In this document: one piece after another, positions 6,611-21,129 of the stretch
Numbering within the stretch: position 1 is the first letter of the stretch
How the letters are laid out: every line of letters starts with the position of its first letter
Source of the DNA: an uncultured Opitutaceae bacterium
GTDB lineage: Bacteria; Verrucomicrobiota; Verrucomicrobiia; Opitutales; Opitutaceae
Direction: 5' to 3'
Assembly (NCBI GenBank): GCA_964574435.1
Contig: CAZNNO010000009.1
Span: forward strand, 3,828-67,827
Length of the DNA stretch: 64,000 bases
The notes under the pieces: generated by a model
What the model was told of the DNA's origin: nothing
Databases searched by the model: none
The model's input: the letters and a program-made list of their open reading frames with translations, nothing else
Position numbers and translations under genes: made by a program

Positions 6611-9600
6611 TCAGTCGGCCGGACGGCGGACGAGGCGGCCCGATTCCGGCGGCGGCGCCACCTCGGGCTGCTCCTCGGCGAACGCCCGCGTGGGCGCGAG
6701 CGCCTGGCCGGATGCCGTCTGCAGCCTGCCGTCCTTCACCGCCACGTCCTCGACCCGGTAGAGGCGGCCCTCCCTCCGCAGGAACGCATCGAACTCGCCC
6801 GCGTTGAACGGGCGGCTGCCGCGCCTGCCGAAGACCACGGTCTGGTTGCCGGTCTCGTCGACCACCCGGTCGCGATCGAGTCCGCGGCTCACGGCCACGG
6901 CCGCGCCCCGGGTCGGGTAGGTGGCGATCAGCCTCGGGTTCGGGGCCGGGCTGAATCCCATGTAGCCGGGGACGTTCTCGGGCGAGATCATCTGGAGGAC
7001 CCGCAGGCCGTTCTTCCCGTCAGCGACGAGCGCGTACATGGACGCGCTCACGGAGCCGATCTGCACGGCGCGCGTGTCATTGAGCTGCCCGCCGGCGCTG
7101 AAAATCTCCCTGAGGCTCGGGGACGCCGGATTCTTGATGTCCACGATCGCGAGGCCCTCGGAGCCGTCGGCGACATAGAGGTAGGTCCGGGCCGCGTAGA
7201 GGCCCTGCGCATCCCTCAGGGGGACCGTGGCGCCCGCCAGGGGCGCGGGATTGTCCGGGTCGGCCAGGTCGAGGACCTTCACGCCGTCGTCGTCGGTGAC
7301 GAAGGCGTACAGGAACTGGACGGCCAGGCTCCGCGGGTTGCGCAGGAACCCGGCGGGCGTGCGGCCTGTTATCCGCGGCTTCGTCGGGTCGCTCACATCG
7401 ACAACCACGAGGCCCGCGGTGCAGGTCACGTAGAGTCGCCTTCCGGCGACATAGGCGTGCGTCGCCCCGTCGAGCGCGCCGCCGGGGTTGAAGCGCGTGA
7501 CGTCCGAATCCCTGAAGAAGTTGTTCGTGGGATCGCCGTCGAGGAGCGTCCCGACCATCACGTCGACCAGGCCCTCGTAGCGGTCGGTGACGTAGACGTA
7601 ACCGTAGACCAGGCTGATCGGCTGCTCCTCGTTCTCCGGCCGGTGGGTGCGAAGGGGGTCGATGCCGAGCGTGCTGGGAAGGGCCACGCTTGTCGCATAC
7701 TTCGTGCGGACCCAGAGGCGCTGGCCGAGGGGCGAGACCGGGGCCGAGACGATGCGCTCCGAGAAGCCCTTGTTGTCGACATTCGCGACGTCGAATACCT
7801 CGAATCCGCCGGGGCCGTTGGCCGTGTACAGGTACTCGCCGCGCAGCGTGAGGTCCCTGATGTCCTCGCCGTCGTGGTGCCAGCCCTCCTTGAGGACGCC
7901 CGCGTTGGCCTCGACATGCAGCCTGTAGTTGTCCGGATACGCGAGGCGCTGGAGGTGGCTGCCCAGGGGCGCCTGGGGCTCCTCGCGCTCCGTCCACGCG
8001 ACGGCGTCAAAGCCGTCGCGCCCGGAGCCGACATAGGCGTAGCGTCCGAAGAAGTTGACCGTGCCCGTCCCGAAGCCGAGCAGCTGGGTCACCCAGGCAT
8101 TGTTGTCGTTCGAGGCGGACAGGTGGCAATCCGTGCAGTTCTTCGTCGTGCCCACCGAGCTTGTCGTGTGGGGGAAATGCGGGTTGAAGGCCTGGCCTGA
8201 GTAGCCCTCCGCCGATATGGTCTGCTGCTGAGAATAGATCCATTCGCGGTTGGCGTTCTGCGATCCCACGATGACCGCGCTCGACGAGCGCAGGACGGCC
8301 AGGCGGTTCCCCTTGTAGGTGGCGTCCTTGCCGAGCATGAACACGTCGTCGCGCACGACCTGGGGGTTGTAGCTCGTGTAGTTGCGCGTGGTCGTCCCCT
8401 CGAACTTGTTGGCCTGGACCATCTTGTTTGCGCGCATCGGCAGGTGGCAGCCGAAGCAGCTCGTCGCCCATGACGTGTGGCATATCTGGCACGAGATATT
8501 GGAATTTGCGTGGGCAAGCTGCTCGGAGATGATGACGGGGTTCGCGGGCACGTCGCCCCACGTTACCCCGTCCCGCCGCAGGGTCTTCGCGTAGGCGGAC
8601 TTCGGGTTGTAATGCTCCGAGGCGGGGTTGATCGTGTCGATAGTCTGCGGGACCTCCCAGACCACGTCGGGGGTCATCATCGAGCGCTGGTAGAGCCGGC
8701 GCCCGACCCAGAAGAACCTGGGTCCCCACGGCGTGGAGCCCTTGGACAGGTCGGACGGCTCGACTTTTCCGTCCTCAAAGGTCCCGGAATTGCCCGTGGT
8801 CACCAGCGTCGGCCTCCGCTCTACGGTGCCGTGGCAGTCGATGCACTCGATTGCGGTCGCAGCGCGCGGTTCGCCGTAGAGCAGCCCGTTGCCGTGCACA
8901 TCGGTCCCGAAGTGGCAGTCGACGCACTGCATGCCGCGCGCAAGATGGACGTCCTTCAGGTGCACTGCCTTCGTGAACTTCGCGGGGTCGTCGTGGTCGA
9001 TGGGCTTGTCGTCGAGCGTGAGGAGGTTGCCCTCGCGATCCTTCTTGAATACGGCGCGGAACACCCATCCGTGGCCATGGTAGTCGGCAAACTGGGTCTG
9101 CTTCAGCTTGGGATTGAGCTCGGCTACCTTCTCCAGGAAGTCGGGATCGCCCCAGAGGCCCCTCGCCGCGGCAGCCTCGGGGTTGCGCTGCAGCGAAGCC
9201 GCCACCTCGGCCTCCGTCGGGTTCCTCTGGGAGGCCGGGTACATGAATTCGCCGTCGCTCTCCTGGTCCCACCAGATGTAGCCGAGAAAGGGGTTAACAA
9301 ACAGGTTGCCCTGGTGCATGTGGCAGGTGATGCACTGGCTCGACGGGATGCTGCGCGTGAACTGGTGGCGGATCGGGTGGGCCTTCTCGCGCTTGGAGAT
9401 CATGGGGTCGCCAGTGAAGCTGAGTCCCTGGTTGCCGTACTTGGACCACCAGCCGGAATTGGTCGGCGACCGGTCGTTCGCATAGACAACATGGCAGGCG
9501 GCGCAGCCCGACGAGCGGTAGTCGCCCGGGTGGTCGTTCGAGCCCATGAAGCCGAGGAGGGGATCGTGCAGCCGGGTCTTCTGAAGGTTGAGGAACACGG

Positions 9601-10498
9601 GGTCGATGCGGTTGAGCGTCCCAAGGCCCCTTTCCGAGAGGCGCCGCTCCGGATGACCGGGCGTCTCGAACGGGTCGGGAATCCCGATCCGCTCCTGCTT
9701 CTCGCCGCCCTCCTCGAAGATCCGCAGGATGTTCGACGGCTGGCCGAGCTCGAAGCGGGGCAGCGGCTCGAGGTAGGGAAGGATGCCGTTGAGCCGGGTC
9801 AGCTCCGGGGAGACGGGCACGGGGCTCTCCAGCCGCAGGGCCTCGCCATTGGCCCCGTACGCCTGACCGTAGCGCGGGTTCTTGAACGGAACCGCGCCGT
9901 TGTTATAGAGGGCGGCGCCCCAGAGCATCGCCCCGTGGTTCATCATGCTCTTGCCGACATGCTGGACTATCTCGCCGTGGCATAACCCGCAGGCCTTGTC
10001 CGCCACCCGCAGATCCGCCGGGTTCACGAACCGGATGAACTCCTCCGACTCGTGGTTGAGCAGGACCGAGGAGTCGGAGGGTTTTGCCGAGCTCTGCCAG
10101 AAGACCGGGTTGCGCGGCGCGACGTGGGCCTTTCGCATCGTCAGCCCGGGTGTCGGGTCGCCTCCGTGGCAGTCGACGCAGCCGAGGACCACGAAGGGCG
10201 AGGCGTGCATGTCCTCGACTCCGCTGTGGCACTGCAGGCAGCCGGCGCTCTTGCGCCGGGCCGCCTCCGGGCTCTGGTCCACGAGGGTGGCCTCCTTCGG
10301 CGCAGGCAGGGGGGCATCGGACGAGCGCGCGTCCCGCGAGACGGAGATCGGCGGACCAAAGAGCGTCGGTCCCGCCGGGGCCTGGGCTGCGCCTGGGGTC
10401 CCCGCCGGCTGCGCGAGCGAACACAGCGCCAGGCCCGCGCCCGCGACGGCCGCGATCAGGCGCTGGGCGCGTACGGGCTTCTTCGGTGGGAAAGGCAT
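6611..10498 (-). CDS. Secreted decahaem c-type cytochrome fused to a C-terminal LVIVD-repeat beta-propeller
   Basis: ATG at 10498. Sec-type signal peptide (RLIAAVAGAGLALCSLAQP). Ten CXXCH motifs in the first ~800 aa (CLQCH, CVDCH, CGLCH, CAACH, CITCH, CVDCH, CIDCH, CQICH, CFGCH, CTDCH). The C-terminal ~450 aa carries repeated GFEVFDVANVDN, GLVVVDVSDPTKP, GVKVLDLADPDNP, GLAIVDIKNPASP and GLRVLQMISPEN units typical of LVIVD repeats. Confidence 0.85.
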   Translation of the reverse strand: MPFPPKKPVRAQRLIAAVAGAGLALCSLAQPAGTPGAAQAPAGPTLFGPPISVSRDARSSDAPLPAPKEATLVDQSPEAARRKSAGCLQCHSGVEDMHASPFVVLGCVDCHGGDPTPGLTMRKAHVAPRNPVFWQSSAKPSDSSVLLNHESEEFIRFVNPADLRVADKACGLCHGEIVQHVGKSMMNHGAMLWGAALYNNGAVPFKNPRYGQAYGANGEALRLESPVPVSPELTRLNGILPYLEPLPRFELGQPSNILRIFEEGGEKQERIGIPDPFETPGHPERRLSERGLGTLNRIDPVFLNLQKTRLHDPLLGFMGSNDHPGDYRSSGCAACHVVYANDRSPTNSGWWSKYGNQGLSFTGDPMISKREKAHPIRHQFTRSIPSSQCITCHMHQGNLFVNPFLGYIWWDQESDGEFMYPASQRNPTEAEVAASLQRNPEAAAARGLWGDPDFLEKVAELNPKLKQTQFADYHGHGWVFRAVFKKDREGNLLTLDDKPIDHDDPAKFTKAVHLKDVHLARGMQCVDCHFGTDVHGNGLLYGEPRAATAIECIDCHGTVERRPTLVTTGNSGTFEDGKVEPSDLSKGSTPWGPRFFWVGRRLYQRSMMTPDVVWEVPQTIDTINPASEHYNPKSAYAKTLRRDGVTWGDVPANPVIISEQLAHANSNISCQICHTSWATSCFGCHLPMRANKMVQANKFEGTTTRNYTSYNPQVVRDDVFMLGKDATYKGNRLAVLRSSSAVIVGSQNANREWIYSQQQTISAEGYSGQAFNPHFPHTTSSVGTTKNCTDCHLSASNDNNAWVTQLLGFGTGTVNFFGRYAYVGSGRDGFDAVAWTEREEPQAPLGSHLQRLAYPDNYRLHVEANAGVLKEGWHHDGEDIRDLTLRGEYLYTANGPGGFEVFDVANVDNKGFSERIVSAPVSPLGQRLWVRTKYATSVALPSTLGIDPLRTHRPENEEQPISLVYGYVYVTDRYEGLVDVMVGTLLDGDPTNNFFRDSDVTRFNPGGALDGATHAYVAGRRLYVTCTAGLVVVDVSDPTKPRITGRTPAGFLRNPRSLAVQFLYAFVTDDDGVKVLDLADPDNPAPLAGATVPLRDAQGLYAARTYLYVADGSEGLAIVDIKNPASPSLREIFSAGGQLNDTRAVQIGSVSASMYALVADGKNGLRVLQMISPENVPGYMGFSPAPNPRLIATYPTRGAAVAVSRGLDRDRVVDETGNQTVVFGRRGSRPFNAGEFDAFLRREGRLYRVEDVAVKDGRLQTASGQALAPTRAFAEEQPEVAPPPESGRLVRRPAD

Positions 10499-10516: not shown

Positions 10517-12841
10517 TCAGTAGGTGAACGTTCCGGCGAGAATTGCGCTGTACAAAAATTGGTCAACCTTGCCGCTCGAGGCGGGCGTGAATCCGGGCAC
10601 GGCCGGCACCGTGTTCGTGTAGATGTCCCGGTAGCCGCTTCCGGGAAGCAGGACACCGCAGCCGGCGGAGATAATGACGTTGCTAATGAGGAAGGGGCGC
10701 CACTGGAACCCGAGGCTCAGGTCGAAGCCGATGCTGCGGCCCGCCTGGTTTGTCATGAGGACCGTCTTCAGGGTGTCGGTCGAGTCAAACTGGAGGTAGT
10801 TTGCGTTCGCGAAGGCCCGAAGCTTCGGGGTAATGTCCGCCTCGGCGCCCAGGCCGTACAGCAGCAGGCCCGGATTCACGAAATTGGACTGTCCCTCGAA
10901 GGAGCCTCCCGCGCGAAGGTCGGGAAGCAGGCTGAAGCGCTGCTTGAGCGGGACCGACGTCCCGCCGAGGTTGAAGCTTTGGCGCACCCAGTAGCTGAAC
11001 GGCCCCCCGGTGAAGTTCGTGTTGTCCTCGATCGAGTCAAAGCCCGTTGCGCGCCCGCCCTGAGGGTCCCTGTCGCCCGACGCGTAGAAGAACGAGGCCT
11101 TGTAGCGGATCCAGTCCCTGTCGAAGCTCAGCTCGATCGCCGCCATCTCCGCCAAGATGTCCTCCGGGCGCCCCGCAAGGCCGTTGAACTCGTCGCGGCC
11201 TGTGACGAGATAGAGGGCGTCATCCACGTTCAGCTTGCCGATATGACCGTCCCCGGTCAGCCCGATGTAGTAGCTGTCGACGCGGTGGGCTCGAACCGTG
11301 CCGATCGGCGCGGGGCGAACAAGGAATCCGTTCGTGTCGTACTTGGTGCCCGGCTGGTCGAAGCTGCCCAGGACGCTGAGCTCCGTGGTGAACCCGGGGA
11401 ACAGCGAGTCCTGGCGGTAGACGTTCGCGACCGCCACGAGCTGGCCGCGCCTCTGGAAAGTGTTGAGGTCCGAGTCCGTGTCCTTCTCGCGCAGGTCGAA
11501 CAGGGCGAGGTTGTATTGCCACTTGTTGTTGCCGTAGTTGCCGAAGAAGCGGGCGCCGAGGTTCGTGTCGTTGAATATGAAGCCGCGGAAGTCGCTGTTG
11601 AACGTCTGGTTTCCGACGTCGACGGCGCAGAAGTCGTAGTTGGGGGACAGGTCGGCGAGGTGCACCTCGAGGAACGCCTCCTGGAGCGAAACGTAGGTCC
11701 TGTCCCGGGATGTCGCCTGGGTGCCGGCCAGGCTTCCCGGGGCGGGAGTGAGCCCCCCGAGGAGCGAGCCCACGTCGCCCGGGTTTGTGACCCCACCGTC
11801 GTCCGTTCCCGTCCCGTTCGAGGTCAGCGACCCGGTCGGGCTCGGGGAAACCTGGGCCGTCTCGCGGAAATCCACGTGGTTGAAGTCGAAGACGGGCTTG
11901 ATATGCACCAGCCAGTCGACCGGCTTGAACACCGTGTCCCCCTTGAAGAGGTCGAACTCGAGCGCGAGGTCCGACGTGAAGAGCCGCGAGCCGCTGTTCC
12001 CGTAGAAATTGAAGCTTCCCGCGGACGCCGCGCTCGGGCCGCTGGGAACCGGCAGCGTCCGGTCCTCGCCGACAAAGTCGGCCGTCGCGGTGAGCCTGAG
12101 GAACACGTCCTGGCCGCTTATCGGCAGGTCTCCCTTGAGCATGCTCTGGCGGTAATAGTGCCAGAACTCGGGATCGGAATGAAAATACGGCATCTCCTCG
12201 GTGTCGCCGGAGGTGTAGCGGCGCCAGGGCTCGAAGCCTTCCCGCCAGCGGTCGGGCACGGGCCGCGCCCCGGGGAACGCGCCGGGGGTGTCCGCAGGCG
12301 GGTAGGAGCCCGGGGCGCTCCAGTGGCCCGGGATGAACTCGTCCTCGCGCACGCCCGCCCTCGGGAGCCTGAGCGGCGCGGGGAGGGGCTCCTGGCCGTA
12401 GCCGGACGGCGCGGCGGCCTCGGGGGCCTGCGCGATCTGGACCCGCTCGAGGGGCCCGCGGGCCACGCTGACCTGCGCGGTCTCCTGCTTGGCCGGCTCC
12501 GCGGCCTGGAACGTCGAGAAAAGGGAAGGCTCCGGTGCGGGCGCCACTGCCTGCCAGGCTCCGGGGTCCGGGTCGAACTGGAGCGCGGGCTGGGCGCCAT
12601 TGCCCTCTGGGATACGCCTGAGCACGAGGACAGGCGGGGGAAGCGCCACGGGCGGCGCCGGCAGGGGCGCGCCCGGATCGACGTGGACATCGCTCGGCGC
12701 CGCGGGAGGCGTTCCCCTGGACTCCCGTTGCATGGGGCGCGGCTTGTCGGCGGGCAGGACGTCGGGCGCGACCGCGGGGCCGCTCCGGCAAGCCGCCAGG
12801 GCGACAAGGACGAAGGCCGACGTCAGCAGCGCTCGCCTCAT
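10517..12841 (-). CDS. Large outer-membrane beta-barrel lipoprotein (porin-like component)
   Basis: The internal ATG at 12841 gives MRRALLTSAFVLVALAACRSG (lipobox LAAC) and overlaps the upstream stop by 4 nt (ATGA). A ~200-aa Pro/Ala-rich linker is followed by ~550 aa with alternating hydrophobic/polar, Gly/Asp/Asn/Tyr/Phe-rich barrel-type composition, ending ...LAGTFTY with a C-terminal aromatic residue. The longer ORF to 13072 is rejected. Confidence 0.7.
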   Translation of the reverse strand: MRRALLTSAFVLVALAACRSGPAVAPDVLPADKPRPMQRESRGTPPAAPSDVHVDPGAPLPAPPVALPPPVLVLRRIPEGNGAQPALQFDPDPGAWQAVAPAPEPSLFSTFQAAEPAKQETAQVSVARGPLERVQIAQAPEAAAPSGYGQEPLPAPLRLPRAGVREDEFIPGHWSAPGSYPPADTPGAFPGARPVPDRWREGFEPWRRYTSGDTEEMPYFHSDPEFWHYYRQSMLKGDLPISGQDVFLRLTATADFVGEDRTLPVPSGPSAASAGSFNFYGNSGSRLFTSDLALEFDLFKGDTVFKPVDWLVHIKPVFDFNHVDFRETAQVSPSPTGSLTSNGTGTDDGGVTNPGDVGSLLGGLTPAPGSLAGTQATSRDRTYVSLQEAFLEVHLADLSPNYDFCAVDVGNQTFNSDFRGFIFNDTNLGARFFGNYGNNKWQYNLALFDLREKDTDSDLNTFQRRGQLVAVANVYRQDSLFPGFTTELSVLGSFDQPGTKYDTNGFLVRPAPIGTVRAHRVDSYYIGLTGDGHIGKLNVDDALYLVTGRDEFNGLAGRPEDILAEMAAIELSFDRDWIRYKASFFYASGDRDPQGGRATGFDSIEDNTNFTGGPFSYWVRQSFNLGGTSVPLKQRFSLLPDLRAGGSFEGQSNFVNPGLLLYGLGAEADITPKLRAFANANYLQFDSTDTLKTVLMTNQAGRSIGFDLSLGFQWRPFLISNVIISAGCGVLLPGSGYRDIYTNTVPAVPGFTPASSGKVDQFLYSAILAGTFTY

Positions 12842-14541
12842 GGCAGCTTCGCCGTCAACGACCCCCTGGACAGCATCGCCGGCATGTTGTGGTAGACGTG
12901 GCAGGTCGTGCAGCTGTGCGCGACGCCGCCCTTCGGGCTGTGGCATCGGACGCAGCTCTGCTGCGTCGGAAGGATGACGTCGGAGGTGCGCTCGCTTGCG
13001 GCCGCCGCGTGGCACTCGGTGCAGGCCATGGCCGAGTGGGCCGAATGGCGGAACGAAGCGCCGAGCAGCCACCGGTCGGGCGTCTCCGGGGGCGTCACCT
13101 GGGGAACCGCGCTCCCGCGCCAGGCGACGTCGTGGCAGAGCGCGCAGCCCGCGAATTTCGCCCGCTCCTCTCCTCCACCGGCGGCCGGCATGGTCTTGCC
13201 GTTGCTGAGAAAGACCTCCCGCTCAAGTTCCTCGCCGCTGTGCGCGCGCTGGCGCAGCGACTCGAGCTTGCGCCGCACAAAGGCCTCGACCTCCCTTTGG
13301 GAGGAGATCCCGAGCTTGCGAACGGCGAAGTCGGCGTACTGGACTGGGAGGCTTCGCAGGAACGCCCGCACGAACGCCGCGTTGCCGTGCGGAAGGTTCA
13401 TCCCGGGCGTCCGTTCGTCGAAGTCGAGTGCGTGGCAGGCGCGGCATGAGCCCTCGAAGGAGATCCGGGACATGTAGGCCCCGGAGGCGTCGGGCCTGTG
13501 GCAGTAGGCGCAGTCGAGCGGACGGCCGTCCACCAGCGGGATGTCGGTGCCGACCAGGTGGAGACGGTGGTTGAAGCGGAGCGTGTTGACGTCCTGGGAC
13601 TTGTCGCGCAGCACCCGGAACTCGGGGTGATCGGCGGCAAACCCCGTAATCACCTCGGTGTATCCGTCGACAGGCCTGCGCACCGAATGAACGACGAGGC
13701 CGGGAGGGGCCGGACGCTCGAACAGGATCGCCGGCAGGGGCCGGCTCAGCTGGCGCGACGCCTGCATCTGCCTTGGGTCGCCGTGGCACGCGATGCAGTT
13801 CTGCCCGGATACCGCCAGCATCGGGCCGGAGCCCTGGTGCTCCCGGTGGCAGACGGGGCACGAGGTTGCGCGCGCCACGTCGGCCTCGTGGAAGCCCCGC
13901 GCCGCATGGCAGGCCAGGCAAGAACGGTCCATGCGCGAGAAATCCTTCGGGTGATCGCCCGTCAGGTCCGCGAAGCGAAGCGAGGTCCGGGAGGCCGCGA
14001 GGGCATCCAGGGCTAGGTCGCTGAACGTCGAATTCGCGACCGCATGGCAGAGGACGCAGCCCTGCCCGCCCTTCGCGCCCGGCACGCCCGCGGCCAGGTG
14101 CGCGAATTCGGGGCCCGAATGCTGCCGGGAGAGCGGCCGGGGATTTATGAAAATGTCCCGCGCCGAACCCGACAGGCCGACCAGGAGCGCCCCAAGCGCC
14201 GCCGCGGTCACCGCAAGGGCGACCTGGCCGCGGCGCGCCCGCAGGCTGCGCACCGGCTTGCATCGGGGGACCGCGCGGCAGCACGCGCCGTCGGGCAGCG
14301 GCCCGGCCTCGCACGGGCCGCCCCAGTCTTCGGGCCGCGTGCAAACCCACGTGCCCTTTGTTTCGCCCGGCTTGAGCGCGAGACGCGGGGCGCACTCCGT
14401 CGTTGCGCGGCATTTGCCGGTCGGACTCGGGCCGATGCGGCACGGGCACCCGTCCTTCGCGTTGCCGCACACCCAGTCCTTGTTCGGGCGCTCGTAGCGG
14501 CCGCTATTGAAGTCCGGCGTGGGCGCTCTTCCCTCGCTCAT
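12838..14541 (-). CDS. Signal-anchored decahaem c-type cytochrome with N-terminal cytoplasmic Cys-rich domain
   Basis: ATG at 14541 overlaps the upstream stop (ATGA). Residues ~20-95 contain 10 Cys (WVCGNAKDGCPC..GKC..TEC..WVC..GPC..ACC..PRC). These are followed by RSLRARRGQ and one TM helix (VALAVTAAALGALLVGL), then ten CXXCH motifs (CVLCH, CLACH, CPVCH, CIACH, CAYCH, CRACH, CALCH, CTECH, CVRCH, CTTCH). Confidence 0.85.
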   Translation of the reverse strand: MSEGRAPTPDFNSGRYERPNKDWVCGNAKDGCPCRIGPSPTGKCRATTECAPRLALKPGETKGTWVCTRPEDWGGPCEAGPLPDGACCRAVPRCKPVRSLRARRGQVALAVTAAALGALLVGLSGSARDIFINPRPLSRQHSGPEFAHLAAGVPGAKGGQGCVLCHAVANSTFSDLALDALAASRTSLRFADLTGDHPKDFSRMDRSCLACHAARGFHEADVARATSCPVCHREHQGSGPMLAVSGQNCIACHGDPRQMQASRQLSRPLPAILFERPAPPGLVVHSVRRPVDGYTEVITGFAADHPEFRVLRDKSQDVNTLRFNHRLHLVGTDIPLVDGRPLDCAYCHRPDASGAYMSRISFEGSCRACHALDFDERTPGMNLPHGNAAFVRAFLRSLPVQYADFAVRKLGISSQREVEAFVRRKLESLRQRAHSGEELEREVFLSNGKTMPAAGGGEERAKFAGCALCHDVAWRGSAVPQVTPPETPDRWLLGASFRHSAHSAMACTECHAAAASERTSDVILPTQQSCVRCHSPKGGVAHSCTTCHVYHNMPAMLSRGSLTAKLP

Positions 14542-15365
14542 CGCGCCCCCCCTGAAAAAGCATAGACCAACACGACATGCACGCCCGTGAACGTCAGCAT
14601 CGCATAGGTCAGCGGTATGTGGACAAACAGCCAGCCCTTCAGGACGAGCTGCATCGAGCGGTGGAGGTCGAGGGCGTCCTTCTCGCGCACCAGAGCCGCG
14701 AGCTCGACCGCCGCCGACTTCTCAAAGTGGCTCAGGTACTTCTTGATCTCCCCGATGTCCGCAAGGAGCCTGTTCAGGGTGTGGCGGGAGCCAAGCAGAT
14801 GCGGCCCGAAGTTCGCCGGGCCGGCGAAGAAGCCGCTCAGCCTCGCGGCGTAGAAGTCGGCAAGGGTCGTCGCGCCCGCCGTGGGGATGCCGGCGACCAC
14901 AAGGGCCTCGGCGCGCTCGCGCAGCGACCGGCGGATGGACGGGATTCGCTCGTAGGGGACCTCGCCCCCGGCGCTCGTCAGCCTGCGCGGCAGGACGCTC
15001 GAAAGCCACCAGCCGGCGATGCCGCTCAGCGTTACCCCGACGAAGAGCGCGGCCAGCGTTGCCTCGAACGGCCCCCGGGGAAGGCGCCGGCCCGCGTGCA
15101 TGAAAAATACGATGGCCGTCAGCATCCCAATCCAGGAATGAAGCCGCATCCAGGTCCGAGAGCTCACTAGCGGCAGGAAGGCGATCTTCTTGCGCAGGTT
15201 GTAGGCGGTCAGGAAAAGCGTCAGGGCAAACAGAACCCACCCCGTGAGGTAGGCCAGGCGGGGGTTAACCGTCTCGGCCCTGCTGAACGCCCAGATGGCC
15301 GCTGCCGCGGCCCCGGTCGCCGCGGCCGGATAACCGGCCCGCCTTAGGATCCGGCCCGCCTTCAT
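14538..15365 (-). CDS. Polytopic membrane protein with four intramembrane His (candidate dihaem b-type cytochrome)
   Basis: ATG at 15365 (MKAGRIL) overlaps the upstream stop by 4 nt. About 5 predicted TM helices, with His in helices at WMRLHSWIG, VFFMHAG, LFVHIPL and FTGVHVVL, plus a ~110-aa soluble loop. Haem b binding is an inference. Confidence 0.65.
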   Translation of the reverse strand: MKAGRILRRAGYPAAATGAAAAAIWAFSRAETVNPRLAYLTGWVLFALTLFLTAYNLRKKIAFLPLVSSRTWMRLHSWIGMLTAIVFFMHAGRRLPRGPFEATLAALFVGVTLSGIAGWWLSSVLPRRLTSAGGEVPYERIPSIRRSLRERAEALVVAGIPTAGATTLADFYAARLSGFFAGPANFGPHLLGSRHTLNRLLADIGEIKKYLSHFEKSAAVELAALVREKDALDLHRSMQLVLKGWLFVHIPLTYAMLTFTGVHVVLVYAFSGGAR

Positions 15366-17086
15366 CTTTGAATCCAGCTCACGAGCTCGTCGAGCGTGTT
15401 GAGGTTGATCCTTTTCAGCGCGTCGTGAGGGCACGCGCGCTCGCAGGCCGGCCCCCCGTACTGGTCATTGCAGAGGTCGCACTTGGTCGCCTTGTGGATC
15501 GGGTTGGAATCGCTCGCGAGGAGGATGGCCCCCTTTCGGTCGCGCTGCTCGACCATGCGGATGGCCCCGTACGGGCAGTTGTTGGCACAGGCCGAGCAGC
15601 CGATGCAGCTCGAAGGGTTGATGACGACGTTTCCCTCAAAGGTCTCGCGGTGGATGGCGCCCGTCGGGCACCCGATCATGCAGATCGGGTCCGTGCAGTG
15701 CATGCAGGCCTGGGCCACCATGAGGTTGTTGTGGATGGGGCCGTGCCTCAGGAAGCGCGGGTTGTTGTCATGAGTGGCGGCGCACGCCCGGACGCAGTCG
15801 TCGCACCGGGTGCAGTGGTCCAGGTCGATGACCATGGTCTTCGTCCCGTTGAAGAACCTGTTCTGGGTGACGAATTCCATGACCTCCGCCGCCACGCGCG
15901 CGTCGGGCGACTCCGGTGAGGAGGCGGGCCTGAGACGCGCGTCGGCGCGGCGGTCGCCCTCGATCGGGGGCGGAAGCATGGCGTCGGGCATCGCCGGCAG
16001 CACGATCTCCTCTATGATGGAGGCCGGTATCACGAGCACATGCGTGTACCCGATGACGCGAAGGGTGTGCTGGAGGGCGACGTGGTCGTTCGGCCGGCGC
16101 CAGTTGTGAGCGATCTCGTCGAAGCCGTACATGCGTCCCGAGCCGAGGTAGCTGAGGGTGCGGTGCCCGCTTCCATAGCGCTGCGTGACGCGCGCGAACC
16201 CGGCCCGGATCATCACGACGCTGTTGGGGTAGTCGCCCTCGACCGCGATCGTCGGCTCCTGCGCGGCCGAGGCCCCGGACTGCACGAGCTGCTTGTATTC
16301 GCCGGACCAGTCGTATTCCCCGTAAGTCTCGAACTGCGTCGCGTCCATCAGGCGCCTCTTGGCGTCCGCGCCGAGGAACCTCATGAACGGCAGCTCCTCC
16401 AGGTAGGTCGAGAGGGCCCTGTCCCTGTAGATCCCGTCGATGAACTTCCTGACTTGGGGGTCGTAGCGCATGAGGTCGCGCAGGCCCTGCCAGCGGATCT
16501 CGAGCATCTCGGCGCCACCGGCCTTTGCCAGGATTGTCGCGGTCCGAGGGAGTCGAGAAAGCGCGGCTATCTCGCCGAAGACGTCGCCGACGCTGATGGT
16601 CGCTGTGCGCTGGCCGCTCAGGACGCGCGGGATGTCCTGGAGGATGATGCCGGGCTCGGCGTCGCCCGACCGCGCCGCAGGGGTGTCGGCTCCCGCGCCC
16701 CCCTTCGCCACCTCGTCCTCGGCGGGATTCGTCCAGAGCTGGGCAAGCGCCCGGAACAGTCCCCGTCGGGCCGGTTCGCTTCGTCCCACGAGCCTCGGCG
16801 GCAGACCCGGGCTTAGGACGACCTCTGCGGAGCCCGACATGACCATGAAAGCCGAGTTCCCATAGTCGCCCTCGCGCACGATGATCTCGCCGGGCTTGAA
16901 CTGGCGCAGGCGCGCGTCGTTCCTAAGGATGTCGTGGAGCTGTGCCGATCTCGGGAAGCTCTCCGGGTTCATTTCCTTGAACGGGGGGATCCTCAGGAGC
17001 CGGCCCACGTCCATCTCGGACATGTCCTTGCTGAACGGGACATCCCACCGCCTCGGACGATTGAGACCGGACGTGGACTGGCTCAT
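15362..17086 (-). CDS. Two cyclic-nucleotide-binding domains fused to a four-cluster [4Fe-4S] ferredoxin (DmsB/NrfC-like), cytoplasmic
   Basis: ATG at 17086 (MSQSTSGLN) shares 1 nt with the upstream stop (TGATG). cNMP-type segments are FKPGEIIVREGDYGNSAFMVMSG...GDVFGEIAAL and a second AVEGDYPNSVVMIRAGFARV...GRMYGFDEI. The C-terminus has CTRCDDCVRAC, CMHCTDPICMIGCP, CIGCSACANNCP and CDLCND..ACERACP. No signal peptide. The upstream extension to 17431 is rejected. Confidence 0.85.
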   Translation of the reverse strand: MSQSTSGLNRPRRWDVPFSKDMSEMDVGRLLRIPPFKEMNPESFPRSAQLHDILRNDARLRQFKPGEIIVREGDYGNSAFMVMSGSAEVVLSPGLPPRLVGRSEPARRGLFRALAQLWTNPAEDEVAKGGAGADTPAARSGDAEPGIILQDIPRVLSGQRTATISVGDVFGEIAALSRLPRTATILAKAGGAEMLEIRWQGLRDLMRYDPQVRKFIDGIYRDRALSTYLEELPFMRFLGADAKRRLMDATQFETYGEYDWSGEYKQLVQSGASAAQEPTIAVEGDYPNSVVMIRAGFARVTQRYGSGHRTLSYLGSGRMYGFDEIAHNWRRPNDHVALQHTLRVIGYTHVLVIPASIIEEIVLPAMPDAMLPPPIEGDRRADARLRPASSPESPDARVAAEVMEFVTQNRFFNGTKTMVIDLDHCTRCDDCVRACAATHDNNPRFLRHGPIHNNLMVAQACMHCTDPICMIGCPTGAIHRETFEGNVVINPSSCIGCSACANNCPYGAIRMVEQRDRKGAILLASDSNPIHKATKCDLCNDQYGGPACERACPHDALKRINLNTLDELVSWIQR

Positions 17087-18381
17087 CAGGCGTCGATTAC
17101 CAGCGCGGTGGCGGGCCGGCAGATGCACGCGAGGCAGGAACCCTGCTCCACGTCGGCCCCGTGAGCGCCTATGTATTCCACCGAACCGGACTTGATCGCG
17201 ACAAGGCAGGAGCCGCAGTTGCCGGCGCGACACCCGGCGTCGATCCGGATCTGTGCCTCCTCGGCCAGCTCGAGGAGGGAACGCCCGCCGCCCTGCCAGG
17301 TGACCTTGCGGCCAGATTTCGCGAACGTGACCTCCAGGCCGCCAAACGGGGCGAACGTGACGGCGACCTTCGCCTCGGGCTTTGCCGCGCGCTTTACCGA
17401 GGCGGGGCCGAAGGCCTCGAAATGCACCCACTCGTCAGGCACTCCCCATTTCCTGAGGTCCTCGGTTATGCTCTCCATGAATGCGCCGGGGCCGCAGAGG
17501 AAATACTCGAAGTTGTTGGAGGGAAGCACCTGCTTGAAGAGGTCCACCGTGACCCGCCCCTGATGCTGGTAATCGCGGCCCTTTACGTCCGACTCTAGCG
17601 GCTTGGAATAGCAGATGTGAACCCGCACGTTCCTGTGATCGCTGCCAAGAGCGCTCATGTAGCCCTTGAACATGTGATCCTTGTTGTTCCGGGCCCCGTG
17701 GAAGAACCAGATCTCGCGGGACGACTTGGTCTCCAGCAGCGCGTTGGCCATGGCCACCATGGGCGTCACGCCCACTCCGCCCGAGATGAGGACGACCGGC
17801 CGCTCCTGCTCCGGGTCGAGGTGGAAGTGCCCGTTCGGCGCCTTCACGTCGAGGATGTCGCCAACCTTGACCTGGTCGCAGAAGAAGGACGAACCCACGC
17901 CTGGCGGGTGGATTCCCCCCTCTGCCGGAGGGCAGCGCTTTATGGTAACGCGGTAGTGCGTCGCCCGGGCGCAGTCCGAGAGCGAGTAGCATCGCACCAG
18001 CGGTTTTCCGAGTCCCGGGATGTTCAGCAGGAACGTGAGGTACTGGCCGGGCTTGAACGGGGGCAGGGGTTTGCCGTCGTGGGGCTTGAGGTAGAACGAG
18101 TAGGTGTCTGCGCATTCCATCACCTTCTGGGTCACCGAGAACTTGCGGATTCCGTTCCAGGCCGACTTGGCCTCCTCAACGTTCTTTATCTGCTGGCGGG
18201 CCTTCTCGATCTCGAGCTCCAGCCGCCGGCACTGCAACGCCGCCCGCCTTCTCTCCGCAAGCAGCCCGAGGATTCCGGTCGCTGCCAGGACACACACCTC
18301 CGTCGCGAGACCGAGGACGATCAGGACACCTGCGGTCGCCTCGGGGTGATCGGCGACAAATTTTAAGATCCTCACCAGCAT
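17086..18381 (-). CDS. Membrane-anchored FNR-family flavoprotein oxidoreductase with C-terminal plant-type [2Fe-2S] ferredoxin domain
   Basis: ATG at 18381. N-terminal TM helix (GVLIVLGLATEVCVLAATGILGLL) and a coiled stretch. FAD-binding RCYSLSD (RxYS), NAD(P)-binding VVLISGGVGVTPMVAM, then CRAGNCGSC...CLAC 2Fe-2S ligands. Confidence 0.85.
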   Translation of the reverse strand: MLVRILKFVADHPEATAGVLIVLGLATEVCVLAATGILGLLAERRRAALQCRRLELEIEKARQQIKNVEEAKSAWNGIRKFSVTQKVMECADTYSFYLKPHDGKPLPPFKPGQYLTFLLNIPGLGKPLVRCYSLSDCARATHYRVTIKRCPPAEGGIHPPGVGSSFFCDQVKVGDILDVKAPNGHFHLDPEQERPVVLISGGVGVTPMVAMANALLETKSSREIWFFHGARNNKDHMFKGYMSALGSDHRNVRVHICYSKPLESDVKGRDYQHQGRVTVDLFKQVLPSNNFEYFLCGPGAFMESITEDLRKWGVPDEWVHFEAFGPASVKRAAKPEAKVAVTFAPFGGLEVTFAKSGRKVTWQGGGRSLLELAEEAQIRIDAGCRAGNCGSCLVAIKSGSVEYIGAHGADVEQGSCLACICRPATALVIDA

Positions 18382-18497: not shown

Positions 18498-19640
18498 ATG
18501 CGACCGGCAACAAAAGTGGGCATCGTGGCGATCCTGGGCCTGGCCGCCCTGGCTCCCCTTGCGCCGGCGGCCGCCCTTGAGGGGCTCGGGGCAGGCACGT
18601 GCTCCACAAGCGGCTGCCATGGGGGCGCGGGCGAAATGAGCAACCAGTATGTCGTTTGGGTGCAACGAGACGTGCATTCCCGGTCCTATGCCACGCTCAA
18701 CACGGCGCGCTCCGCCCGAATGGCCGAGGCGCTGTCCGTGGCCAATCCGGCAACAAGTCCGCGCTGCATCGTGTGCCATGCGCCGCTGGCGAGCATCCCG
18801 TCCATGGGCCCAGGCGCGGGATTCGACCCGGCCGAGGGCGTTTCGTGCGTGAGCTGCCACGACCTGCCGGCCGGCTGGCTTCGCAGTCACACCCGCAAGG
18901 ACTGGACGCACGCCGACCGCGTCGCGGCCGGCATGCGCGACTTGAACGACCTTTATTGCCGGGCGAACACCTGCGTCGCCTGCCACCAGAATGTCGATCC
19001 CGAGCTTGTGAGCGTCGGACGCCACCCCGCTCTCATCTTCGAGCTCGACGGTCAGACCCAGGACGAGCCGAAGCATTGGCGCGAGCGCTCGGCCGACATT
19101 GGAGCCCAGGCCTGGTTTGTCGGGCAGGCGGTTGCCCTGAGGGAGGTCAGCTGGGCCCTCCTCAACGGCCGGGCGGACACCGCGCGCTCAATTCCCGTAT
19201 GGCGGGGACTGGTCTGGCTGCTGGCCCGCAGCGGAGTGGACGCCGGGTTGGCGCCGTTGGCCCTGTCGGCGCCCTCGCAGTCGGCGCTGGCGTCCGCAGT
19301 CGAGACTGCCGACCTGCTGGCGAAGAGGGCGGCGCAGACCTGGGAGCCGCAGTCCGCTGGCACCGTGCTAAGGCGCCTCGCAGCGACCCAGGATGACTTC
19401 CTCGCCACGGACATTCCGCAGCTTGAGCAGGCATGCCGCGCCGAGCGGCTCGTCCTGGCCCTCGACCGGCTCCTGGCCGCAGTGCCGGCCGAAGGCCGCC
19501 CGCCCGAAGCCTCCAAGCGGCTGGACCGGCTCTTCAGGCTCGCGCAGTCGCAGCCGGATTTCGTGCCGGCCGACTTTGCGCACGAGCTCGCGGCCTTTTC
19601 AGGGGCGCTCGGCGGGCTCAGTGGCTCGACGACGCGCTGA
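18498..19640 (+). CDS. Secreted multihaem c-type cytochrome (3 CXXCH plus one CX4CH)
   Basis: ATG at 18498. Signal peptide (VGIVAILGLAALAPLAPAAA). Motifs CSTSGCH (CX4CH), CIVCH, CVSCH and CVACH in the first ~170 aa, followed by a ~200-aa Ala/Leu-rich non-haem C-terminal region. Confidence 0.8.
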   Translation: MRPATKVGIVAILGLAALAPLAPAAALEGLGAGTCSTSGCHGGAGEMSNQYVVWVQRDVHSRSYATLNTARSARMAEALSVANPATSPRCIVCHAPLASIPSMGPGAGFDPAEGVSCVSCHDLPAGWLRSHTRKDWTHADRVAAGMRDLNDLYCRANTCVACHQNVDPELVSVGRHPALIFELDGQTQDEPKHWRERSADIGAQAWFVGQAVALREVSWALLNGRADTARSIPVWRGLVWLLARSGVDAGLAPLALSAPSQSALASAVETADLLAKRAAQTWEPQSAGTVLRRLAATQDDFLATDIPQLEQACRAERLVLALDRLLAAVPAEGRPPEASKRLDRLFRLAQSQPDFVPADFAHELAAFSGALGGLSGSTTR

Positions 19641-21129
19641 CCGGCGGGGTCGGCGGGTTGAGCTCGGGCTCGCGCGGGAACACGGCGTAGGGCAGCCTGG
19701 CGCCGAGATAGGTGAAATTGTCGGCCCGTATGGCGGGATCCGGTTGGAATCCCGGCGTGCCAGAGGCCGAGATCAGGTCGTCCTGGTCGACGCCGTCCCC
19801 CGATACGCCGATTGCCCCGATGAGCACGCCGTTGCGGTAGAGGGGGAATCCGCCGGGGAAAATGGTGATCCCGTCGGGAAGGTTGCCGTTGATGGTGCCT
19901 GTGCCGCTTATGATTGGGGCCGAGAAGGTCGCCTGCAGGCCGTTGAAGGGGCCCGGCGGCTCGCCGTCAATCCCGGGGGGGTACATCGACTGCGCCAGGA
20001 ACCCCACGGTTCTCGCGGAGAACGCCCGGCTTGCGTCCGAGAAGAAGAGCGCCGTGCGCGCCTTCTGGACTGAGACATCCCACGAGAAGAGCGTGGCGTC
20101 GGGCGTCCGGAAGGTGCCGAGGACAACGGGCGCCTCGCCGGGACTGTTCGGGTTGTTGACGACCGAGATGAACACCTCCGCATTCTGGCCCACCGGCAGT
20201 CGGATGCCGGCTCGCGTCACAAGGGAGCGGGCGGCCGCGCTGGAGATGATGCCCCTGACCTCGGCCGCCGAGAGGCGCGCCTGTCCGGAAATGGCGCCGG
20301 GTGCCGGGTCGGCTATGATCGGCGACCTAACCTGGCCGAGCACCCCTCCCATCACCGCCGTCGGCCATGCGAGCGGGGAGAGTTCGACCAGGCCGGTCGT
20401 GTCCGGAGCGACAGCGGCCGAAATCGGCCCAGGGGAGCTCGCCACATAGGGGAAGCCGATGCCGCCGACGTAGATGCCTGTGGCAAGGATGTCCTGGGGG
20501 GGGGCGTAGCCTACCTGCCCCGTCAGGGCGACCACCTCGTTGGTGTCGGGACCGTAGATGCTTCCGTCCTCGACCTCGGGTCCGGCGCCGGTGACTCCGA
20601 TGCCGGCAAGGAGGACGCCGTTCTTGTAGAGCGGGACCCCCCCGGGCGAGCCGTAGAGCCGGGTGCCCGGAATGCGGCTTCCGTCGAGGCGGCGGAAGCT
20701 GTTGATGTCCGAGAACGCCAGGGAAGAGAACCCGACGCCCACAAGGGGCCCCGGGGGCGTGTTCGCAACGCCTGGTGGGTAGTGCTGCTGGATTATGAAG
20801 CCGGCCGTCCGCGACGTCAGGGCCTCGCCGTCGCTGCTCAGGAATGCGGCCGTGCCTGCCTTTGAAACGGCTATGGCCTCCTCGGTCTCGGAGAAATTCT
20901 GGGTGCCGTCGGCCGCGCGCACCAGCAGCTCGCGTCCGTCGCGGTCCACGATCGCGATGACCGAGGCAGGTGAGATCTGCCGGGCGATGCCGGCCGCCTG
21001 AGAAAAAATCGTCGCCTGGTCATCGACGGTCAGGCCCTGGCCGGAGGCAGCCGACGCGACTGCGAGGGCGCCCGCGCACAGGAGCGTCTGGCGCAGCGTC
21101 TGAAATCCGCTTCCAAGGGCCTCGATCAC
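19618..21129 (-). CDS. Secreted protein with two tandem GlcG/HbpS-like (DUF336) domains
   Basis: GTG start at 21129 and a signal-like N-terminus. Two copies of the pattern ..IAIVDRDG..L....DG.......A..KA.TA..F... and GG.PLY.NGVL.G.IGV.G (GGVPLYKNGVLLAGIGVTG and GGFPLYRNGVLIGAIGVSG). Confidence 0.7.
   Translation of the reverse strand: MIEALGSGFQTLRQTLLCAGALAVASAASGQGLTVDDQATIFSQAAGIARQISPASVIAIVDRDGRELLVRAADGTQNFSETEEAIAVSKAGTAAFLSSDGEALTSRTAGFIIQQHYPPGVANTPPGPLVGVGFSSLAFSDINSFRRLDGSRIPGTRLYGSPGGVPLYKNGVLLAGIGVTGAGPEVEDGSIYGPDTNEVVALTGQVGYAPPQDILATGIYVGGIGFPYVASSPGPISAAVAPDTTGLVELSPLAWPTAVMGGVLGQVRSPIIADPAPGAISGQARLSAAEVRGIISSAAARSLVTRAGIRLPVGQNAEVFISVVNNPNSPGEAPVVLGTFRTPDATLFSWDVSVQKARTALFFSDASRAFSARTVGFLAQSMYPPGIDGEPPGPFNGLQATFSAPIISGTGTINGNLPDGITIFPGGFPLYRNGVLIGAIGVSGDGVDQDDLISASGTPGFQPDPAIRADNFTYLGARLPYAVFPREPELNPPTPPVSASSSH

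Follow-up and report, generated by a model that had tools for sequence, protein, structure and literature searches.

Gene content and identity of the locus

The window, which is the whole 64,000-nt stretch of DNA analyzed, carries a run of minus-strand genes around a 567-aa multihaem ORF (Table 1). This ORF is the decahaem PtdG of the PCC4 or ptdABCDEFG cluster (He et al., 2017, Front Microbiol, PMC5566968; bioRxiv 10.1101/2023.11.21.568154). Like published PtdG, it has ten CXXCH motifs and its gene lies directly after an FRD-like PtdF, with PtdE (cNMP/4Fe-4S) and PtdC (FAD/NAD(P) oxidoreductase) also present. A homologue of tetrahaem PtdD is close by here too (26% identity to Nitrospirales PtdD, E 9e-11). 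The PtdF counterpart in PCC4 is an FRD-like inner-membrane protein with two HX13H motifs (PMC5566968), and the homologue in the window has two such pairs, His76/His90 and His249/His263. It has four hydrophobic helices, while PtdC and PtdG have one each. The published ptd gene order was seen in the retrieved alphaproteobacterial, Nitrospirales, and planctomycete loci. In contrast, pentahaem PtdA and the porin PtdB are absent here, and a decahaem cytochrome with LVIVD repeats stands in place of PtdA. The locus is a verrucomicrobial variant of the cluster, because its different barrel and the 1295-aa LVIVD decahaem cytochrome occur in verrucomicrobial loci only. The barrel gave no match outside Verrucomicrobiota, and it is syntenic only within that phylum.

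Table 1. Predicted genes and protein features at the ptd-type locus (positions in the window).
Feature	Position	Strand	Sequence pattern
1295-aa multihaem (decahaem) cytochrome with LVIVD repeats, likely outer component	6611..10498	minus	
Putative outer-membrane barrel; start overlaps PtdG stop (ATGA)	10517..12841	minus	
PtdG-type decahaem cytochrome c, 567 aa: predicted cytoplasmic twin-Cys4 domain, signal-anchor helix, ten-haem domain	12838..14541	minus	
Predicted periplasmic domain, ten CXXCH haem sites, residues 126-567	12841..14166	minus	
Predicted single transmembrane signal-anchor helix, residues ~105-125	14167..14229	minus	
Basic juxtamembrane stretch, predicted cytoplasmic side	14230..14250	minus	R98-S-L-R-A-R-R104
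N-terminal Cys-rich domain, residues 1-97	14251..14541	minus	
Cys4 module 2, residues 62-96	14254..14358	minus	W-x-C67-x9-C77-xxGPxPxG-x-C87(C88)-x5-C94-x-P
Cys4 module 1, residues 16-52	14386..14496	minus	YERPN..W-x-C25-x8-C34-RIGP-x3-G-x-C44-x5-C50-x-P
PtdF homologue, 275-aa membrane protein, putative dihaem b	14538..15365	minus	
PtdE homologue: cNMP-binding-like domains and 16 Cys in four [4Fe-4S] motifs, without TM helix	15362..17086	minus	
PtdC homologue: N-terminal TM helix, FAD/NAD(P)H-binding domain, C-terminal 2Fe-2S domain	17086..18381	minus	
Cytochrome c554-like tetrahaem protein, PtdD homologue, divergently transcribed	18498..19640	plus	

The haem motifs of PtdG are at C162, C208, C228, C249, C344, C366, C466, C507, C530, and C544. 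All ten are kept in the homologue alignment A1, and the ORF has no CX3-4CH motif. The arrangement given in the preliminary description, a decahaem protein with ten preceding Cys, a basic stretch, and one transmembrane helix, is borne out by the sequence.

The PtdG ATG (14539-14541) overlaps the TGA stop of ptdF as ATGA, and homologues from Verrucomicrobiota, Alphaproteobacteria, Planctomycetota, Gemmatimonadota, and other groups start at the same position. In these homologues from several phyla, the Cys-rich segment and the haem domain share one open frame. By the overlap and the cross-phylum agreement, the upstream ATG is the real start and the N-terminal domain is translated; the earlier reservation that orthologs might start downstream of the Cys segment does not hold. 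Some public gene calls do begin at an internal GTG ("VRSLR...", in P0055, P0064, P0066, and P0081), which would make the segment an annotation artefact with V97 as the true start and the 96 preceding codons untranslated. We give this almost no credence, and the conservation data refute it: the GTG lacks conservation, as just 73 of 99 homologues have V97, the 96 upstream codons are the best-conserved part of PtdG across phyla, and the ATGA coupling is located at the upstream ATG.

A duplicated cysteine-rich domain ahead of the cytochrome

The N-terminal domain is rich in Pro and Gly (14 and 12 per 97 residues), and its ten Cys (residues 25, 32, 34, 44, 50, 67, 77, 87, 88, and 94) match the ten-Cys, Gly/Pro-rich string described earlier at residues ~20-95. 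A ~40-residue module, W-x-C-x8/9-C-xxGP-x4-G-x-C-x5/6-C-x-P, is duplicated in tandem within the domain (hhalign probability of the internal repeat 94%, E 1e-7). Eight Cys form the core (25, 34, 44, 50, 67, 77, 87, and 94), with spacings of 8, 9, 5 in one module and 9, 9, 6 in the other. C32 and C88 are accessory and variable, additional Cys are frequent at position 29, and in 56 of 255 family members the eight core Cys are the only ones. The number of modules is usually two, but one is found in L121 and three in P0246 and P0265. By AF2, the domain is mainly coil, with pLDDT of 76-85 across residues 20-100.

The eight core Cys are invariant among close homologues (99/99) and 96-99% conserved among representatives of the 150 most similar clusters at 50% identity, which come from several phyla. 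The pattern is not due to chance, and the earlier reservation that it might not be conserved in orthologs can be dropped. Conserved together with the core Cys are W23, G26, G31, G37-P38, G42, P52, R69, G74-G75, G80-P81, G85, and P96.

Comparison with known domains gave no relatives. Searches with Pfam and NCBIfam on whole PtdG gave no match in the N-terminal domain, Pfam on residues 1-100 gave none at E<=10, and a PDB sequence-profile search with the domain gave none. Residues 1-100 have neither the CxxCxxCxxxCP motif nor a profile match of Fer4-clan ferredoxins. The domain has no zinc-ribbon or ZAS features (paired CxxC knuckles or HxxxCxxC) and no His. The domain is not mentioned in either publication on the cluster; the word "cysteine" is absent from the preprint (bioRxiv 10.1101/2023.11.21.568154) and is used only for the haem motif in PMC5566968. 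No account of a multihaem cytochrome with a Cys-rich cytoplasmic domain turned up in full-text literature searches.

A profile of the N-terminal domain alone retrieved 622 protein clusters. Of the 150 matches listed, all except four have the domain at the N-terminus with a multihaem cytochrome behind it, and the same holds for every full-length example checked; exactly ten CXXCH are present in 93/109 full-length carriers. The Cys-rich segment is a domain family restricted to PtdG-type cytochromes and not described before. The arrangement was at first called unusual, which holds among characterized cytochromes, but within its own large family, which comprises 622 clusters or more, it is standard. 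Seeming fusions of PtdF with PtdG, or an internally placed domain (P0121, P0130, and P0238), trace to upstream read-through or frameshifted gene calls.

Topology and co-inheritance

PtdG has a single hydrophobic segment (about 105-125, Kyte-Doolittle peak 2.09), which comes after RSLRARRG (98-105), and AF2 places a helix at 100-124 with pLDDT above 90. One hydrophobic segment is present in 207 of 216 family members. Attachment of c-type haem by the Ccm and Ccs systems is periplasmic, and the positive-inside rule holds in the family: K+R flanking the helix average 5.0 on the N-side and 1.6 on the C-side across the 216 members. The head should therefore be cytoplasmic and PtdG N-in/C-out, in keeping with the topology first assigned. 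A Tat signal peptide was rejected because the twin arginine of S/T-R-R-x-F-L-K is not invariant (RR in 107, KR in 64, and another pair in 27 of 198 members).

Gly/Pro-rich, Cys-rich modules with little secondary structure resemble small disulfide-knot domains, and the eight Cys could in principle form four disulfides outside the cytoplasm. We regard this as very improbable, since PtdG lacks a signal peptide at its N-terminus and has just one hydrophobic segment, which with the haem domain outside puts the N-terminus inside; the N-part also has a mean net charge of +7 in the family and a strongly basic juxtamembrane flank. A less remote but still unlikely alternative is that signal peptidase cuts after the helix, releasing a soluble periplasmic decahaem protein and leaving a tethered Cys subunit of ~125 residues, so that the fusion would serve merely for 1:1 synthesis and co-insertion of both parts. 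The 10-haem protein is listed as a periplasmic multihaem cytochrome (PMC5566968; bioRxiv 10.1101/2023.11.21.568154), small residues follow the helix in the window protein (L-S-G-S-A-R), and all co-occurrence data are compatible with cleavage. However, the published labels are automatic predictions, the post-helix residues are not conserved as an AXA-type site (family consensus GLxGxxRxSF), and invariant Arg128 comes directly after.

The PtdF/PtdG gene order is conserved in about 130 loci, and PtdC-PtdE-PtdF lies directly upstream of PtdG in essentially every locus with enough flank; the sole exception, L036, is a 9.8-kb contig with unrelated AT-rich sequence upstream. When loci were collected independently, with the C-terminal four-haem region as query, 54 had a ptdE match, and the N-terminal domain was present in 54/54. 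The domain is 41-52% identical where the haem part drops to 27% or less, and this range is similar to that of PtdC, PtdE, and PtdF (39-53%). In the alphaproteobacterial loci L065-L072, which were also retrieved with the C-terminal four-haem profile, it is 47-52% identical and the haem part about 27%.

Nitrospirales genomes lack PtdE altogether, and only in this lineage is the N-terminal domain deleted. In one clade the domain persists next to what remains of PtdC, a TM-anchored 2Fe-2S protein, and another clade has lost this anchor and, cleanly, the domain too. These clades are natural deletion variants for comparison. Strict co-occurrence with PtdC, PtdE, and PtdF and loss of the head only where PtdE is missing both fit the earlier suggestion that the head is a docking site for the neighboring ferredoxin.

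Survival of the conduit without the domain in one Nitrospirales clade would also suit a regulatory role, in which the Cys modules sense cytoplasmic redox state, iron, or another signal and gate the conduit jointly with the cNMP-binding-like domains of PtdE, instead of carrying electrons or mainly docking. A cytoplasmic Cys domain, one helix, and a periplasmic domain make up the topology of anti-sigma factors and sensors, and PtdE has ligand-binding-like domains. We nevertheless think a thiol or metal sensor quite improbable: the domain has neither a ZAS motif nor His, no sigma factor or regulator is syntenic with the PtdG loci, and eight invariant Cys with module numbers of 0 to 3 fit fixed metal sites better than a thiol switch.

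Proposed role and comparison with known systems

The reading we favor, with somewhat better than even confidence, is that N-in PtdG offers a cytoplasmic, putatively metal-binding dock, and possibly a relay, for PtdC and PtdE beside PtdF. PtdG would be inserted by one uncleaved signal-anchor helix, with residues 1-97 remaining in the cytoplasm. With about 10 residues between it and the helix, the domain should lie at the cytoplasmic membrane face next to PtdF. It may serve there as a membrane-proximal dock for PtdC (NAD(P)H/FAD/2Fe-2S) and PtdE (4x[4Fe-4S]), and possibly as their last redox relay. On this view the b haems of PtdF, and not the PtdG helix, would take electrons across the membrane and hand them to the ten periplasmic c haems of PtdG, from where they would go on to the barrel and LVIVD cytochrome. 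The preliminary description had also considered the head as a second transmembrane electron entry point; this finds no support, since one Cys-free helix cannot carry electrons and PtdF, with its two HX13H pairs, is the obvious membrane path.

Each of the two modules, with four invariant Cys, most likely holds one metal centre, and an iron or iron-sulfur centre is slightly favored over structural zinc. That each Cys4 module carries a redox-active iron centre, either [4Fe-4S] or rubredoxin-like Fe(Cys)4, is a tentative proposal to which we give somewhat less than even weight. Under it, one polypeptide would combine cytoplasmic iron or iron-sulfur centres with ten periplasmic c haems, the domain would be a new Fe-S family without a relative in Pfam or PDB, and a wire would run from NAD(P)H to the cell surface without involving the quinone pool, its cytoplasmic end longer or shorter depending on module number (0 to 3).

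PCC4/ptd clusters are widespread in marine oxygen-deficient-zone Alphaproteobacteria, Nitrospirales, Planctomycetota, Verrucomicrobiota, and iron oxidizers, and at least ptdAB is highly transcribed in the oxygen-deficient-zone Alphaproteobacteria (bioRxiv 10.1101/2023.11.21.568154). Published models have the decahaem protein soluble in the periplasm and the inner-membrane protein joined to the quinone pool. That PtdG has a conserved cytoplasmic domain of metal-binding type, inherited along with a flavoprotein and a four-cluster ferredoxin, speaks for another picture, in which a complex independent of quinones couples NAD(P)H in the cytoplasm directly to haems in the periplasm and outside the cell. 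The domain defines a new small Cys4 module family; it probably binds metal and probably links NAD(P)H and iron-sulfur proteins of the cell to the envelope electron conduit.

MtrA/DmsE (TIGR03508) and PtdG both have ten haems and go with an outer-membrane barrel and an outer cytochrome. However, MtrA is soluble with a cleaved signal peptide, whereas PtdG is probably anchored, and TIGR03508 scores PtdG at 32.5 bits over residues 159-268 only, below the curated cut-off of 192.2. NrfH, NapC, and CymA, like PtdG, have an N-terminal single helix anchoring periplasmic c haems at the inner membrane, but they have four haems, a quinol site, and a short N-terminus that is just a few residues long; PtdG has ten haems and a 97-residue cytoplasmic domain, without a Cytochrom_NNT match.

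In sulfate reducers, TmcABCD, HmcABCDEF, and DsrMKJOP combine periplasmic multihaem c, membrane haem-b, and cytoplasmic Cys-rich Fe-S subunits. The logic is the same as proposed for ptd, one electron path across the membrane. In those complexes a CCG-domain protein of its own (HmcF, TmcB, or DsrK) provides the Cys-rich part in the cytoplasm, whereas that of PtdG is fused through one helix to cytochrome c and has no CCG or Fer4 match; since there is no sequence homology, the likeness is functional only. Ferric-reductase-domain systems (NOX, FRE, and MsrQ with Fre) pass electrons from NAD(P)H through flavin to two stacked bis-His b haems (HX13H pairs) that span the membrane. PtdC and PtdF, with its HX13H pairs, look like a split version of this design, but NOX and FRE need no Fe-S chain or Cys4 domain and have six helices in one chain. 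It is a matter of speculation that the helices of PtdF (four), PtdC (one), and PtdG (one) pack together.

Cysteine-rich N-terminus and membrane orientation of PtdG

The window PtdG has 567 residues, and motif and hydrophobicity scans confirmed the preliminary description of it as a ten-haem cytochrome with ten N-terminal cysteines, a basic stretch, and one transmembrane segment. In the whole-protein motif scan, CXXCH was the sole haem-type motif found, with ten copies from C162 to C544. Ten additional cysteines (positions 25, 32, 34, 44, 50, 67, 77, 87, 88, and 94) lie in the N-terminal domain (N-domain), whose 97 residues include 14 Pro and 12 Gly; a composition check found His absent from the Cys-rich segment. 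The basic stretch R98-S-L-R-A-R-R104 is followed by the sole hydrophobic segment of the protein (approximately residues 105-125).

A search of a collection of 5.8 billion proteins retrieved 477 relatives. Among the 120 listed, most are 560-576 aa in length with query coverage of 97-100%, and those that are named belong to Opitutaceae or other Verrucomicrobiota. In a 24-sequence alignment, conservation is strongest over the first 100 residues of the protein. Cys25, 34, 44, 50, 67, 77, 87, and 94 are invariant in the 99 N-termini compared, and the accessory cysteines C88 and C32 are present in 91 and 80 of them; 53 of the 99 also have Cys at position 29, where the window protein has Lys. A small number of public gene calls begin with VRSLR, corresponding to an internal GTG at V97. 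This residue is valine in only 73 of the 99 sequences, so these shorter starts are gene-caller choices. An internal start and a non-conserved Cys pattern, two weaknesses foreseen in the preliminary description, were therefore not found.

Membrane orientation was assessed in 216 family members; in 207 there is just one hydrophobic segment. The preceding 15 residues contain on average 5.0 K+R and 0.26 D+E, compared to 1.6 K+R in the 15 residues that follow, and in 98.6% of members the more basic flank is the N-terminal one. A Tat signal was considered and rejected (of 198 members, 107 have RR, 64 KR, and 27 another pair), and family alignments show no conservation of a signal-peptidase site behind the helix. 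Attachment of c-type haem occurs outside the cytoplasmic membrane (Ccm/Ccs systems). Because of this, the predicted orientation of PtdG can only be N-in/C-out, which puts the Cys domain in the cytoplasm, and the flanking charges support the cytoplasmic location first proposed for it.

The twin four-cysteine module and its occurrence

The N-domain is an internal duplication in which residues 18-55 align to residues 60-99 (hhalign probability 94%, E 1e-7). Both halves share the module W-x-C-x8/9-C-x-x-G-P-x4-G-x-C-x5/6-C-x-P, with four invariant cysteines each, and the linker between them varies in length across the family. Module number also varies: one locus from a Poriferihabitaceae MAG encodes a single module (L121:7192-9429), and two metagenomic proteins (P0246 and P0265) have three. 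Another family member (P0193) has an insert of approximately 25 residues between modules. The accessory cysteines are dispensable: in 56 of 255 family members the core eight occur without any others.

Residues 1-100 had no Pfam match even at E<=10, no NCBIfam model covers the N-domain, and none of the PDB sequences matched it in a profile search. AlphaFold2 gave a pLDDT of 50 with a shallow alignment and 78 with 88 sequences from several phyla (76-85 for residues 20-100). Residues 20-100 are predicted to be almost entirely coil with short beta bridges, followed by a confident helix at 100-124. The N-domain is a new, family-specific module that has apparently gone undescribed.

Searching 1.84 billion cluster representatives with a profile restricted to the 100-residue domain yielded 622 proteins at E<=1e-3, of which 467 reached E<=1e-10. 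The domain is at the extreme N-terminus in all but four of the 150 matches listed, the four being apparent gene-calling artefacts, and the carriers among them are mostly proteins of 500-1100 aa. All 15 longer examples fetched have the domain followed by a basic stretch, one helix, and a multihaem cytochrome; in the ten that were scanned, Pfam identified only cytochrome c families plus one SPOR domain. Exactly ten CXXCH motifs occur in 93 of 109 full-length matches, and the core eight cysteines are 96-99% conserved in the diverse domain-profile set. The few internal positions of the domain were attributed to upstream read-through or frameshifted gene calls. The N-domain is therefore confined to a single family of cytochromes rather than being shared widely among proteins. 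The window genome has a single copy. Among 301 sampled genomes of the phylum the domain is present in 11, including 7 of 26 in the window's family; thus, it is a patchy accessory trait.

Gene neighbourhood and domain loss in Nitrospirales

The window ptdG is the fourth of six co-directional genes, and its start and stop codons overlap the adjoining genes by ATGA at the ptdF/ptdG and ptdG/barrel junctions. Mechanical ORFs running from upstream GTGs are too long for PtdE (689 aa, 15362-17431) and PtdF (298 aa, 14538-15434); the lengths of homologues (592/575 aa and 275/274 aa), together with the stop/start overlaps, indicated 574 and 275 aa, respectively. The gene adjoining the PtdD-like cytochrome gene has a counterpart at the same position in Rariglobus hedericola, a 653-aa HbpS-like gene (L002:2807-4768).

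Features of the window ptd locus
Feature	Description	Position	Strand
Gene 1 (PtdC)	TM-anchored FAD/NAD(P)H/2Fe-2S reductase	17086-18381	-
Gene 2 (PtdE)	cNMP-binding-like domains and 16 Cys in four [4Fe-4S] motifs	15362-17086	-
Gene 3 (PtdF)	275-aa membrane protein, His76/His90 and His249/His263	14538-15365	-
Gene 4 (PtdG)	Decahaem cytochrome	12838-14541	-
PtdG helix	Hydrophobic segment of PtdG	14167-14229	-
Gene 5	Putative outer-membrane barrel	directly after ptdG	-
Gene 6	1295-aa LVIVD multihaem cytochrome	after barrel gene	-
PtdD homologue	Cytochrome	18498-19640	divergent
HbpS-like protein	503 aa, two HbpS-like stretches (haem-degrading/GlcG-type, PF03928)	19618-21129	-

A contig search with the domain returned 70 loci from Verrucomicrobiota, Alphaproteobacteria, Planctomycetota, Gemmatimonadota, Omnitrophota, and Methylomirabilota. 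Cultured organisms among the domain carriers include Rariglobus hedericola, Bythopirellula polymerisocia Pla144, Aeoliella sp. SH292, and strain IMCC26134. Wherever the contig extends far enough upstream, with a single exception, ptdC-ptdE-ptdF precede the domain gene with order and strand kept. The exception (L036:4669-6453) is on a 9.8-kb Akkermansiaceae MAG contig with AT-rich unrelated DNA upstream, which may reflect misassembly or insertion. Among the 70 loci, the barrel and LVIVD cytochrome are found in Verrucomicrobiota only. In alphaproteobacterial and planctomycete loci, the N-domain is 41-52% identical to the window's and the three upstream proteins are 39-53% identical, whereas the haem part falls to 27% identity or has no match. 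These identities indicate that the N-domain diverges at about the rate of its cytoplasmic and membrane partners and far more slowly than the haem part.

A second contig search used only the C-terminal four-haem region, so retrieval was independent of the domain. Of the 80 loci found, 54 have a recognizable ptdE upstream, and the N-domain is present in all 54. Twelve loci of Nitrospirales-type MAGs have ptdF and lack ptdE; whole-genome searches of two of these genomes returned nothing but generic Fe-S matches of 50 residues, and no homologue of PtdE. Six of the twelve loci keep the domain (including L097, L100, L105, and L114). In L097, which was examined in detail, a 154-aa protein consisting only of a TM helix and a 2Fe-2S domain is in the place of PtdC. 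The domain is missing in the other six (L092, L095, L096, L098, L102, and L104). In L095, also examined in detail, PtdG has a short acidic N-terminus followed by the basic stretch and helix, a clean deletion of the Cys domain, and the 2Fe-2S remnant of PtdC has lost its TM helix too. Two planctomycete loci where ptdE is not neighbouring (L137 and L140, the latter from Bythopirellula polymerisocia Pla144) have a full-length PtdE encoded elsewhere in the genome; in Pla144 it is on the same contig as ptdF-ptdG, showing that the cluster can be split.

Considering the Nitrospirales loci without PtdE and the planctomycete PtdE encoded elsewhere, domain loss is observed solely alongside decay of the cytoplasmic input module. 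The loss is probably one evolutionary event, so the co-loss is suggestive, not statistical. Because one clade keeps the domain without PtdE, these gene contents show that PtdE cannot be its only partner.

Possible role and relationship to PCC4

Eight invariant cysteines in a reducing compartment, arranged as two (or one to three) independent four-Cys modules with conserved flanking Trp, Arg, Gly, and Pro, suggest that each module holds one metal centre. Iron or iron-sulfur is weakly favoured over zinc, because the invariant cysteines form no CxxC knuckles but are distributed along extended Gly/Pro loops, the ligands have aromatic and Arg neighbours, and the setting is an electron-transfer chain. 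The last ligand is approximately 10 residues from the helix, which would place the domain at the membrane surface. The single Cys-free helix of PtdG is unable to conduct electrons, and PtdF with its two His pairs is the only plausible transmembrane path. The metal-type head and link to neighbouring Fe-S proteins suggested in the preliminary description are supported, but its second transmembrane electron entry point is unsupported. The N-domain is probably a dock on the PtdG side that joins PtdC/PtdE to the inner haem b of PtdF, possibly serving as final relay to that haem, and the helix of PtdG would belong to the membrane bundle.

PCC4 was defined as a porin with three "periplasmic" multihaem cytochromes of 4, 5, and 10 haems (He et al., 2017; PMC5566968). 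It includes a conserved inner-membrane protein that has two WX3HX13H motifs and resembles ferric-reductase domains, as well as an Fe-S gene and other redox genes (PMC5566968). Novel porin-cytochrome clusters in Verrucomicrobia, including Opitutus, were described by the same first author (PMC5615132). The name ptdABCDEFG comes from a preprint in which PtdG is "a periplasmic deca-heme protein" (10.1101/2023.11.21.568154). Neither PMC5566968 nor the preprint mentions an N-terminal domain, and no further paper in the literature searched uses the ptd gene names; the cluster is published but uncharacterised. The N-domain changes how it should be modelled. Based on the PtdD homologue and matching cluster content, the window gene is identified by homology as a verrucomicrobial PtdG, and its cluster as a variant with outer components unlike the published ones. 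PtdF has four hydrophobic helices, and PtdC and PtdG contribute one TM each. The resulting six equal the helix total of the ferric-reductase (NOX/FRE) membrane domain, although here they are summed over three proteins; the match may be fortuitous or may reflect a six-helix bundle split among them.
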